Below are positions 4,842 through 10,091 of a DNA stretch of 64,000 bases, one piece after another. Each line of letters starts with the position of its first letter. Within the stretch, counting starts at the first letter, position 1. Origin of the DNA: an uncultured bacterium (lineage in GTDB: Bacteria; Babelota; Babeliae; Babelales; RVW-14); assembly GCA_963759805.1 (NCBI GenBank), contig CAVXAT010000001.1, positions 256,001 to 320,000 on the forward strand. Direction: 5' to 3'. Both the position numbers and the translations under genes were made by a program. The notes under the pieces were generated by a model. It did not search any database, was not told the origin of the DNA, and worked only from the letters and a program-made list of their open reading frames with translations.

Positions 4842-7094
4842 ATGAATATTTATTTTAGAAAAAACAGAGCATTGATTTCAAAAGTATTGCTGATAATTTT
4901 TGGTGCGAATTTTGGATTATCTTTTTTAGCCGCTGAGACGCAAGCATCTGGGGTACAAACATCCAGCGGGGTACAGACATCAAGCGCTGTGGATAATCGA
5001 CAAACCGTTTATTCGAAAATTTCGGATATGCATATGCCTTCTGTAAAAATGGAGGATTCTAAAGAGCAATCTGAAATGAAAAAAAAACAGGAGGAGAACG
5101 ATAAAGCTTATAATGAGATGCTGACCAATGCAAAGTTTAAAGAGATTAAAATTCCTGCAGTTGGGGATATTGAAAAGCTAAGATTGATATATCAGCTTTT
5201 TCATGGGCGCAGTTTGCAGCTCAATGATGTTATTGGTTGTAGTCGTCCGGTTCTTAATGACAATGTTTTTACCGATTTGCAGATCTACTGTGGTTCGATG
5301 ACCGATTTAAAGCACCATGTTTTTGGGGTTATTGATAATACAGTTACAAGTTTTGGTAAAGTTGAGTTACAACGCTTTTTATATCAAAGGTCTGATTCTG
5401 TTGAACAACTTAAATATGAAATTAAGAATAGGCAGGATATTGTAAAATACCTGGTTGAAAATCCATTTTTGTGCGACAAAATTGAAAAGCAGCTTAAAAT
5501 TGTTAAGCAGGGTGAGACGGATATGCTCTGGTTTTGGAAGGCGTTGGAATTTTCAATCCAAAAATATACTGAGCAGTATTATTTTAAGGGATTTTTGTCC
5601 GGATTAAATGAATCCACAGGGCCTCTTGAACTCCAATCTCTTATGACTACAGTTGTTGCTCCTGCAGACGTAGCTCTTATGGATGCTTTTATGGTAGGAG
5701 TTGGCGCAATTGTGTTGTATAAAGCTTCAAGAGTAGAAAACCTTTGGGCTATGGGTGGGGCAGTTGCCTACTCTGGCCTTTTACTTTTTGGCTCTTATAT
5801 GATGACAAGTATGATTCTTGGATTGGTTCAAACTTTCAATGGCATAACAAATGATATTCAGGATAAGCTGGCAAGTACGGCAAGAATAACGCAAGCTTCT
5901 GCAGCGCTTGCAAAAATTCTAGCTTCTGATGCCAAAATGCCAGTGCTTTGGGATAATTTCAAGAAACTGCAAACAAGTGCGATGCAGGCTCAAGATGGTC
6001 GTGATTTACAAGATCTGTTAAAAAAATTACAGGCAGGAACATTTAAAAGCGAACCTTCATATTTTTCGAACAAAGGGCGAGTGCTGGCGACTTGTAAAAA
6101 GATGTTGCGCTTGAAAGACAATTTTATCAATTCGATTAAGGCCATCGGCGAACTTGATGCATATCTCTCGATTGCAAAGCTCTATTTAAAACATGTAAAC
6201 AATTCTAATGCAAAATACTGCTTTCCTGAAATTATTGAATCAGACAGGCCGTATGTTAATGTAAGCAGAATGTGGCATCCATTTCTTAATCCTGACAAAG
6301 TTGTTACTAATGATATTGAACTTGGACAGGATCAGGCTCAACGAGACTCGTCTCAAAATGTTATTTTGACAGGTCCGAATGCTGCGGGTAAATCAACATT
6401 CTTAAAGGCTTTCACAGTCTCATTAATTTTGGCACAGTCTTTTGGTATAGCTCCTGCCAGTGCAATGAGATTTACCCCATTCATTAAAATCAATACTTAT
6501 TTAAATATATCAGATGAAGAGGGTAGGGAGTCGTTGTTTCAGGCCGAAATGCGACGAGCTCAAGAGCTACTTCGTTCAATCAAGGGGTTGAAAAAAGGTG
6601 AATTTAGCTTTGTTATTATGGATGAAATTTTCACTGGCACAAATCCAAAAGAAGGAACTGCGGGTGCATATGGGGTGGCAAAGAGCGTGTCTAAATATCT
6701 ACAATCAATCTGTATTGTTGCAACACACTTCAAGAAACTTACAGAACTTGAAGAGGATACGAATGGAAGATTTAAGAATTACAAAGTCTATGTAAATAAA
6801 TCTGATACGGGTGATATTGATTATCCTTATAAAGTTGTGCCTGGAATTTCAGATCAAACAATAGCGTTACTGTTATTGGAGAAACAGGGCTTTGATCGAG
6901 AGATTTTGGATGAGGCTTATAAAGCGTTTAATGATGATGAATATGTTCTTGATAGCGTGAAGGGTGAACCTGCTAAACTGGTTCGTGTAGTTGATTTAGG
7001 GGCTGAAGCTGGTGAATATGTTCTTGATAGCGTGAAGGGTGAACCTGCCAAATTGGTTCGTGTAGTTGATTTAGGGGCTGAAGCTGCAGCGTGA
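4842..7094 (+). CDS. MutS-related ATPase (domain V without mismatch-binding domain), with signal peptide, TM hairpin and duplicated C-terminal peptide
   Basis: LTGPNAAGKST, SLFQAEMRR, MDEIFTGT and ATHF motifs; hydrophobic N-terminus and central TM segments; GGGAG RBS before ATG 4842. Confidence 0.88.
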   Translation: MNIYFRKNRALISKVLLIIFGANFGLSFLAAETQASGVQTSSGVQTSSAVDNRQTVYSKISDMHMPSVKMEDSKEQSEMKKKQEENDKAYNEMLTNAKFKEIKIPAVGDIEKLRLIYQLFHGRSLQLNDVIGCSRPVLNDNVFTDLQIYCGSMTDLKHHVFGVIDNTVTSFGKVELQRFLYQRSDSVEQLKYEIKNRQDIVKYLVENPFLCDKIEKQLKIVKQGETDMLWFWKALEFSIQKYTEQYYFKGFLSGLNESTGPLELQSLMTTVVAPADVALMDAFMVGVGAIVLYKASRVENLWAMGGAVAYSGLLLFGSYMMTSMILGLVQTFNGITNDIQDKLASTARITQASAALAKILASDAKMPVLWDNFKKLQTSAMQAQDGRDLQDLLKKLQAGTFKSEPSYFSNKGRVLATCKKMLRLKDNFINSIKAIGELDAYLSIAKLYLKHVNNSNAKYCFPEIIESDRPYVNVSRMWHPFLNPDKVVTNDIELGQDQAQRDSSQNVILTGPNAAGKSTFLKAFTVSLILAQSFGIAPASAMRFTPFIKINTYLNISDEEGRESLFQAEMRRAQELLRSIKGLKKGEFSFVIMDEIFTGTNPKEGTAGAYGVAKSVSKYLQSICIVATHFKKLTELEEDTNGRFKNYKVYVNKSDTGDIDYPYKVVPGISDQTIALLLLEKQGFDREILDEAYKAFNDDEYVLDSVKGEPAKLVRVVDLGAEAGEYVLDSVKGEPAKLVRVVDLGAEAAA
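6939..7088 (+). repeat. Two tandem 75-bp units encoding EYVLDSVKGEPAKLVRVVDLGAEA; third copy at 10011-10091
   Basis: Units start at 6939 and 7014; internal differences are synonymous. Confidence 0.95.
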
Positions 7095-7105
7095 TAGATA
7101 ATAAA

Positions 7106-7168
7106 AGTTAGCTTATTGATTTTAAATTAATTTACGCCGGAGGAGTTAGTAAAATCCTCCGGCATTTT
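7106..7168 (+). terminator. 3' element/terminator, copy 2
   Basis: Stem GCCGGAGGA/TCCTCCGGC followed by T-rich sequence. Confidence 0.8.
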
Positions 7169-8428: not shown

Positions 8429-8432
8429 GTAT

Positions 8433-10091
8433 ATGGATTTTGTAAGTAAGTGGAGAGAGCGCTTAGGTTGTAGTGGATATTTTAAGATTTTGATATTTGG
8501 CTTAGGGTTTACGTGTTTAAATAACGCTTATGCAATGCAAGGTGGGCATGGAATTCAAGATGCGAAGTGGTTACAGGATTTAGCTAAGGAAATGGAGAGA
8601 GCGGGAGAGAATTTTGCCAGGGAGAGAGAGGATCACAAGCGAGAGAATGCACATCAAGAAGAATGGTTAGTTGATGAGATACGAAATTTGAAAGCGAATG
8701 GTGTTGACGATAGTGATCCACGAATAAAGCAGGCAGAGAGAAGAATCGGAGAATTAGCTCAGGAAAAACAGACGCAAGATAAGATTGGTGATTTCGGGCT
8801 AGATGTTGTAAAGGGAGTTTGGGGCGCTGTTTTGGGGGATTATAACAAAGAGCAACGTATTGAAGAGGTGCAGAGAAAAGCATTGGCGGATGGTTTTATG
8901 AATAATAAAGGAGCAAGAGAGCGCCTGCAAGCGCTTATGGACCGGATGAAGGATCCAGAGCAGTTATTAAAGTTTGCTATTTTTGCTGCCGGTGTAACAC
9001 TCGGCGTTGTTGGTGTTTATTACGTGGTCAAATTATTTTATCAGTATGTTGAAGCCAGAATGGGCAAACCAAATCTTGTTAGAGAGTCTTCAATTCATGG
9101 ATTTAAACAGGCATTGAAGAAATTCGTGATTTCGATTTTCAGCGGCGAACAGGATCTTGAAGCTGTTCTGAGTGATATTATTTTATCACCTGACATTCAG
9201 GAGAAAGTTTACTTGTTGGCAGATGACACGAAGAACACAAAAGAGTTTAATTTGCCATACCAAAACGTTTTATTTTACGGTCCTCCGGGAACAGGTAAAA
9301 CAGAGTTTGCAAAAATTCTTTCAAGATATTCAGATATGGATTATGCAGTACTTTCGGGCGCCGATTTTAGTCAGTTTAAAAACGGAGAAGGCATTACAGA
9401 GTTGCATAAGTTATTTGAATGGGCAAATAAGAGTAAGCGCGGTTTGATTATTTTTATAGATGAGGCGGATGCCTGTTTTAGAGATCGTGCAACGCTTGAT
9501 AAGGATGGTGTCAATCTTGTTAACGCTTTCTTGTCTCATACGGGATCAAGCTCTGATAAATTTATGATTATTCTTGCTACAAATTATGAAAATGAGCTTG
9601 ATGCAGCGGTTAGAAGCCGTATTCACAAAAAGGTTCCATTCCTATTACCGGCACTTGAAGAACGCTTTAAAATTTTTAAGTTAAAACTTACAAAGTATGT
9701 TCTTAACGATAAGCGTGCTTATTACAAAGAGGGTGTTTGGGTTGAAGAACATCTTGAAGTTGAGGCTGCAGTGGATGATGCATTCTGGAGAGAGATCTCT
9801 ACGCGAACTGAAGGCTTTTCTGGCCGTGACATAGACCAAGCGATTGGTGAAATTAGATTGCGTGCGTATCGTTCAGGCGCTAATCTTGTGACAAAAGAGA
9901 TTGTCGAAACCGTTATTAAAGATAAAATTGCTCAGATAAAGAAAGATAAAGAGTCAACAGAGTATCAAAAGCAGAAGTTTGAGCATATGTTTAATATTCA
10001 TAAGAATGATGAATATGTTCTTGATAGCGTTAAAGGCGAACCTGCTAAATTAGTCCGTGTATCTGATTTGCCAGCTGATGCTCTTGCTTAA
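8433..10091 (+). CDS. AAA+ ATPase, ATAD3-like, with signal peptide, coiled coil and TM segment
   Basis: YGPPGTGKT, FIDEAD, ILATN and EGFSGRDI motifs; pre-AAA segment YVEARMGKPNLVRESS. Alternative start at 8412. Confidence 0.88.
   Translation: MDFVSKWRERLGCSGYFKILIFGLGFTCLNNAYAMQGGHGIQDAKWLQDLAKEMERAGENFAREREDHKRENAHQEEWLVDEIRNLKANGVDDSDPRIKQAERRIGELAQEKQTQDKIGDFGLDVVKGVWGAVLGDYNKEQRIEEVQRKALADGFMNNKGARERLQALMDRMKDPEQLLKFAIFAAGVTLGVVGVYYVVKLFYQYVEARMGKPNLVRESSIHGFKQALKKFVISIFSGEQDLEAVLSDIILSPDIQEKVYLLADDTKNTKEFNLPYQNVLFYGPPGTGKTEFAKILSRYSDMDYAVLSGADFSQFKNGEGITELHKLFEWANKSKRGLIIFIDEADACFRDRATLDKDGVNLVNAFLSHTGSSSDKFMIILATNYENELDAAVRSRIHKKVPFLLPALEERFKIFKLKLTKYVLNDKRAYYKEGVWVEEHLEVEAAVDDAFWREISTRTEGFSGRDIDQAIGEIRLRAYRSGANLVTKEIVETVIKDKIAQIKKDKESTEYQKQKFEHMFNIHKNDEYVLDSVKGEPAKLVRVSDLPADALA

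Follow-up and report, generated by a model that had tools for sequence, protein, structure and literature searches.

The window analyzed here is a 64,000-nucleotide stretch (G000:C1:256001-320000; coordinates below are those of the window unless a contig is named) of the 1.5-Mb, 89% complete genome of an uncultured Babelota bacterium; by analogy with the cultured Dependentiae described in the available text of two reports (PMC6561590, PMC4378268), this bacterium is likely a parasite of protists. Two neighboring ATPase genes in the window end in the same short peptide, and this shared C-terminal tail is the subject of our analysis. The genes run in the order ssb, a MutS-like gene (762 aa), a 406-aa orphan, an ATAD3-like gene (559 aa), and a GIY-YIG element, with dnaK facing them in the opposite orientation. 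The MutS-like ATPase (4806..7094, plus strand) matches Pfam MutS_III and MutS_V and has an N-terminal hydrophobic leader; the ATAD3-like AAA+ ATPase (8412..10091, plus strand) matches Pfam AAA and, weakly, ATAD3_N, and has a leader and one strong hydrophobic segment. Internal hydrophobic segments were found in both proteins by a hydropathy scan; apart from the tail, as the original prediction held, the two are unrelated in their Pfam domains. The 406-aa protein between them (7208..8428, plus strand) has neither a Pfam family nor the tail, and is a conserved partner upstream of the ATAD3-like gene.

The MutS-like open reading frame ends in FNDDEYVLDSVKGEPAKLVRVVDLGAEAGEYVLDSVKGEPAKLVRVVDLGAEAAA and thus carries two copies of the tail, and the ATAD3-like frame ends in HKNDEYVLDSVKGEPAKLVRVSDLPADALA, with one; an identical 17-residue core is present at both C-termini, as first reported. 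All three copies lie on the plus strand. Copy 1 comprises 25 codons at 6939..7013 (core, 6939-6989) and copy 2, with its stop codon, lies at 7014..7094 (core, 7014-7064), the pair forming a tandem 75-nt duplication; copy 3, also with its stop codon, lies at 10011..10091 (core, 10011-10061). As assembled, copies 1 and 2 differ at three sites, two synonymous and one nonsynonymous. Comparison of the 17-codon core of either MutS-like copy with that of the ATAD3-like copy gave six synonymous and no nonsynonymous changes (Fisher P = 0.0001), in agreement with the earlier claim that all DNA differences in the core are synonymous. Because this 17-codon span had been chosen for its identity, we also tested all 27 codons up to the stop, which gave a pS of 0.48 and a pN of 0.13 (P = 0.002); at a pS of 0.48, neutral drift in either copy should have produced several amino acid changes. 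Judged from these substitution counts, the comparison shows purifying selection on the peptide core in both proteins.

The likeness extends beyond the coding sequence: tail, stop codon, spacer, and terminator form a single ungapped 160-nt repeat (7010-7169 versus 10007-10166; 76% identity) that stays in register across the stop codon. The downstream terminator cassette previously noted on both genes lies inside this repeat; the post-mutS copy (7106..7169, plus strand) and the post-ATAD3 copy (10103..10166, plus strand) each contain a terminator-like hairpin, with stems at about 7136-7163 and 10133-10160. Folding gave z scores of -3.7 and -2.7 for these hairpins, and compensating stem changes are visible between the two sequences. 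To these we add a third, 53-nt copy 3' of ssb (4754..4806, plus strand), 94% identical to the post-mutS copy, whose degenerate hairpin is broken (z +0.6). This copy stands in place of the different ssb terminator of two related genomes, G149 and G150, and is likely a recent local copy. The third cassette and the 160-nt repeat together point to repeated copying of 3' DNA from gene to neighboring gene at this locus, and an origin of the tails as a shared 3' unit subsequently held by selection is, from these alignments, very probable. An RNA element in place of a peptide was considered and rejected: the tail DNA is unfolded (z 0.1-0.3) and has no Rfam match near the gathering score.

Six-frame searches of G000 (tblastn and profile searches) found exactly three tail copies, on 2 of 1229 called genes. 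Among 261 genomes of the phylum, profile searches added one tail, in G151, a genome of the same genus, at the end of the ssb-linked MutS-like orthologue (P0008, ending in GNFILESVKGEPARLVRVQPD), and found no credible match in the other 259. An ATAD3-like orthologue, P0025, ends in NDYVLDSRKGNPARLVPLNAA. The tail is therefore present on both families in other genomes, which, together with the pN and pS values, bears out the proposal of a grafted module under peptide selection; the idea of a wider C-terminal distribution held for P0008 and P0025 and failed for most orthologues, which are tailless. By count, the tail occurs in 1 of 22 MutS-like proteins at E <= 1e-100 (P0008) and in 2 of 57 ATAD3-like proteins at E <= 1e-90 (the window's own and P0025); in the close clades, it occurs in two of nine MutS-like and two of six ATAD3-like rows. 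By the hydropathy scan, all four carriers have N-terminal hydrophobic stretches, and exported-looking here means this feature.

Trees were built from 17 MutS-like rows (including 16 from the set of 22 homologues, with tails removed) and 16 ATAD3-like rows. In each tree, the deepest split within the close clade has carriers on either side, and the tag is therefore old. Core identity across species is 12/17 and 10/17, comparable to that of the enzyme bodies (61 to 64%). The ATAD3-like protein P0024, 83% identical, stops exactly at the tail start (HKNETVIA, then stop); from their identity, P0024 to P0027 would belong to the same genus. The MutS-like protein P0003 has an outgroup-type end resembling that of P0010, which implies that a 3' end was replaced at least once within the MutS clade, whichever the direction. 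P0002 to P0005, P0007, P0009, and P0024 to P0027 were judged on their protein sequences, the comparison ending at their stop codons. Genome G150 has the order ssb-mutS-dnaK, with neither a tail nor the ATAD3 pair. In G149 (L143:2030-2415), the mutS-like gene is a short relic with an internal deletion, apparently joined at a short shared word, and ssb now lies beside dnaK.

Broader searches were less informative. A tail-only protein search returned only the window's ATAD3-like protein, and a scan of 1.84 billion representatives returned three chance repeat proteins only; both missed the known carriers P0008 and P0025 and so do not show absence, and the tail's true range may be underestimated. 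Exact degenerate patterns gave two metagenome matches (antisense to a giant adhesin gene), five GTDB matches (the G151 contig and four unrelated), and no viral match. No tail was found by tblastn in phages and plasmids or in 154 viral loci with AAA or MutS relatives; the ESM Atlas gave nothing above 0.85 for the P0025 tail, and PDB and Pfam gave no credible match to the tail, such searches being weak for so short a motif. A likeness of the tail to EF-G domain II was rejected as chance, being weak (E 0.08 to 0.85; 6 of 13 nonself loci), internal, and lost in profile searches. The MutS-like family itself is common, with 2 to 13 matches per genome in this bacterial family, and has relatives in giant viruses (about 30 to 34% identity over 550 aa), which we take to be those labeled MutS8; these have neither a leader nor a tail. 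Literature searches for Babeliae with MutS, for the 10-residue core motif, and for Dependentiae with C-terminal motif, secreted, or gspD gave nothing relevant, subscription journals falling mostly outside their reach, and a search for ATAD3 with TM6 or Dependentiae gave nothing on these proteins. MutS goes unmentioned in the text available to us of PMC4378268, PMC6561590, and PMC4776705, the supplements listing expanded families lying outside this search. The tail is real, selected, and apparently undescribed.

We propose, with a probability of roughly 45%, that the tail is an accessory docking motif that spread by local 3'-end duplication and binds export machinery. One 160-nt 3' unit of peptide, stop codon, and terminator would have been copied between neighboring genes through local tandem duplication and deletion of gene ends, further traces of which would be the cassette after ssb and the duplicated tail, and selection would keep the 17-residue core on both proteins. 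Both ATPases would be exported, and the tail, presumably folded as a beta-hairpin, would be an optional docking handle on one partner, for which a component of the type II secretion pathway would be the most likely candidate. We suggest a handle on an export route because both proteins have hydrophobic leaders, the viral relatives of the MutS-like protein are leaderless, and GspD-like secretins are found in all 35 genomes of the family; two gspD copies are reported for all TM6 genomes in the available text of PMC4776705. That the tail binds one partner common to both proteins seems probable; that this partner belongs to a secretion machine is a tentative and rather doubtful suggestion. Several observations weigh against the proposal. 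The tag is absent from seven of nine close MutS-like and four of six close ATAD3-like rows and is therefore not required for export; only 2 of 1229 called genes are tagged, yet 492 bear a leader by a crude rule; hydrophobic segments occur inside both proteins; and the AAA domain of the ATAD3-like protein could face the cytoplasm, away from the secretin.

A more specific version of this proposal came from the search for tail matches in G000, in which the best nonself match was a GspD-like secretin on contig C13, at C13:12096-14750 (LDSRKGEPSKL versus LDSVKGEPAKL; 9 of 11 residues). The arginine of this segment equals that in the LDSRKG of P0025, and in alignments the matched residues fall on the tip of a glycine-bounded loop of solved GspD chains. 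From the alignment, the span of the loop, and general knowledge of the fold, we predict that the matched loop is the central gate described in the available text of PMC10550240. The match scored 48, a value that best-hit nulls reached once in 400 shuffles and six times in 600 real 19-mers (chance of about 0.3 to 1%). A five-row profile (A7) run over the 261 genomes placed the G000 secretin as the top nontail match (18.7 bits; E 0.0029 for a single genome), followed by matches of 17.6, 17.5, and 16.7 bits. The tail would then mimic the tip of the predicted gate loop of the cell's own secretin, replacing one loop or binding the gate's partner, as a portable linear channel-opening key; with two such keys in tandem, the MutS-like protein would gain avidity. 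We consider this mimicry unlikely.

The case against it is substantial. The secretin match was found post hoc, and with a four-row profile the secretin (E 0.068) is outranked by three chance matches and tied with another. All three tail types score best on the G000 secretin (48, 41, and 44). Against the secretin of its own genome, the G151 tail reaches only 29, below the chance best-hit mean of about 37, versus 41 against that of G000, and shares with its own secretin only a D-to-E change, so that there is no covariation. The matching serine is encoded by TCN in the secretins and by AGC in the tails, which disfavors a direct DNA copy. Chance look-alikes also occur, ILDSVKGE in another region of the G076 secretin and NEEYVISCVKGEP in an insect TIL repeat, and D-x-x-x-G turns are common in hairpins. 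Since the secretin gate tip in this family often reads S-x-K-G-E, an old resemblance between tail and secretin that later decayed in G151 is possible.

Among other secretin-based machines, the available text on TcpF describes a terminal export signal for the toxin-coregulated pilus that is N-terminal and binds a minor pilin (PMC10120004), and that on VesB describes graftable type II secretion information in a folded Ig domain, dependent on the PDZ domain of EpsC (PMC12369372). Both are precedents for a short terminal or graftable segment that routes a few substrates through such a machine; unlike the tail, the substrates described in these two abstracts include none that resembles a secretin gate. 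The tail is like the central gate loop of type II secretins (PMC10550240, in the part available) in that it matches 9 of 11 residues of the G000 GspD-like loop tip by alignment, and unlike it in being free, in using the other serine codon family, and in not tracking the G151 secretin.

A different destination for the same proteins was also weighed, namely, that both ATPases enter the protist host, where the tag would serve as a binding or targeting motif, retained only by lineages whose host has the partner. The patchy retention inside one clade is consistent with this, as are the giant-virus relatives of the MutS-like protein and the resemblance of the other ATPase to mitochondrial ATAD3; cultured Dependentiae have many signal-peptide proteins (44% of coding sequences) and remodel the host mitochondrion, according to the available text of PMC6561590. 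We consider it unlikely: the viral MutS relatives lack the tail, there is no known host, the tail matched no host protein, and its profile gave no credible match in PDB, Pfam, or the 1.84 billion representatives, a weak test for a short motif.

The original prediction had listed, among its options, a hard-coded ssrA-like degron, such tags being read by ClpXP or Tsp. Known systems of this kind are ssrA tags and hard-coded ssrA-like C-terminal degrons, read by ClpXP, SspB, and Tsp/Prc. The tail resembles them in being short and C-terminal, with a small nonpolar end in three of the four carriers (AAA, ALA, and NAA; QPD in G151), and a Prc-like protease is present. The G000 transfer-messenger RNA (tmRNA; C5:74488-74860, minus strand) encodes the tag ANYSNVSSPLVAAA, ending in VAAA, and a tmRNA origin of the tail was ruled out, as this tag is unrelated to the core and resembles the tail in its final Ala residues only. 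Searches for ClpX detected it in none of 35 family genomes versus 10 of 14 controls, SspB was not found in G000 (89% complete), and the sole trace of ClpP in G000 was a 21-bit partial match in a 326-aa frame; the ClpXP claim thus fails. There remains a hard-coded C-terminal turnover signal read by Tsp/Prc, FtsH, or Lon, and Prc-like S41 proteases, two Lon proteases, and FtsH are all present in G000. ATAD3-like relatives, tailed or not, end in AA in 24 of 57 cases (24 of 56 without the fragment P0058) versus 8 of 1229 G000 genes, a count in which the relatives are not independent; because AA ends are common in this family regardless of the tail, any C-end signal predates the tag and leaves the core unexplained. 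Turnover would account only for the last three residues, which are variable, whereas the conserved part is the internal 17-residue core, kept also in the tandem copy that has no free C-terminus. We therefore regard a turnover signal as quite unlikely. As a separate observation, this is a family of genomes without detected ClpX, though its ATAD3-like AA ends resemble the end of the tmRNA tag.

Very unlikely, too, is a role of the tag as an assembly strand that would hold the two ATPases to one another, or to the 406-aa protein, within a single membrane complex. In favor of such a strand, all three genes are neighbors that share one orientation, relatives of the 406-aa protein occur in 15 of 34 other family genomes and directly upstream of the ATAD3-like gene in all eight loci read, and in G152 the order is partner-ATAD3-MutS, the two ATPase families adjoining and the ATAD3-like protein tailless. 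Against this, the pair is conserved across the family without any tail, and downstream of the tailed mutS of G151 come a terminator and an unrelated convergent gene, no close ATAD3 orthologue having been found there (91% complete; one query). Local duplication alone, with the tail functionless on one or both proteins, would fit the three copies within 3.2 kb, the repeated copying of 3' DNA that the post-ssb cassette attests, the tailless majority of orthologues, and the loss of mutS itself in G149, but is highly improbable given zero amino acid versus six synonymous changes, conservation of the tail across species on both families, and the fact that recent gene conversion would also have wiped out the synonymous differences.

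PEP-CTERM, GlyGly-CTERM, and the type IX secretion C-terminal domain (CTD) are each found on many proteins of a genome and are each served by a processing enzyme of their own. The docking motif proposed here is like them in placing the same short C-terminal module on unrelated exported-looking proteins, and unlike them in being confined to two neighboring genes, with no membrane anchor and no Pfam match, and in being lost in most orthologues. A general sorting signal, another of the original suggestions, does not agree with a tail on 2 of 1229 called genes that is absent from most orthologues.

A second portable module was observed, a Leu/Lys coiled coil (L..LK..L..LK..L..L..KL) in at least nine called genes, several of them otherwise unrelated. 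In G000, it is C-terminal at C5:31499-34135, C5:84835-87444, C5:125440-126561, C5:72783-74471, C9:26-694, C3:1765-2208, and C15:10406-11719 and lies just after an N-terminal leader at C21:12432-17096 and C5:46850-50467; a similar end occurs in L128:15551-16675 (G144). As a candidate for a general signal of export or targeting in the phylum, this coiled coil is stronger than the 17-residue tail. In several genera, MutS-like genes and the partner-ATAD3 pair lie beside dnaJ or dnaK or close to one of them (L127, L136, L137, L138, L084, and window 4185-12772), hinting at chaperone-linked folding or export. At 10176-10645 of the window, a stand-alone GIY-YIG nuclease frame lies between perfect 47-nt inverted repeats, the ends of which recur at many genome sites; it resembles a small mobile element that landed between dnaK and the terminator of the ATAD3-like gene.

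The tail is a portable terminal motif and not a new genome-wide system, and its reach is narrow: four known carrier proteins, two neighboring families, and apparently one genus. ClpXP cannot be what reads the Ala-ended tails of this family. How type II secretion chooses its substrates is still unsettled in the available text of PMC10120004 and PMC12369372; if the likeness to the secretin gate were true, a 17-residue natural tag, made as a short synthetic peptide, would offer a one-step binding test of substrate choice. The secretin link aside, the tail offers a clear example of a short motif moved between unrelated neighbors by 3'-end duplication and kept by selection.

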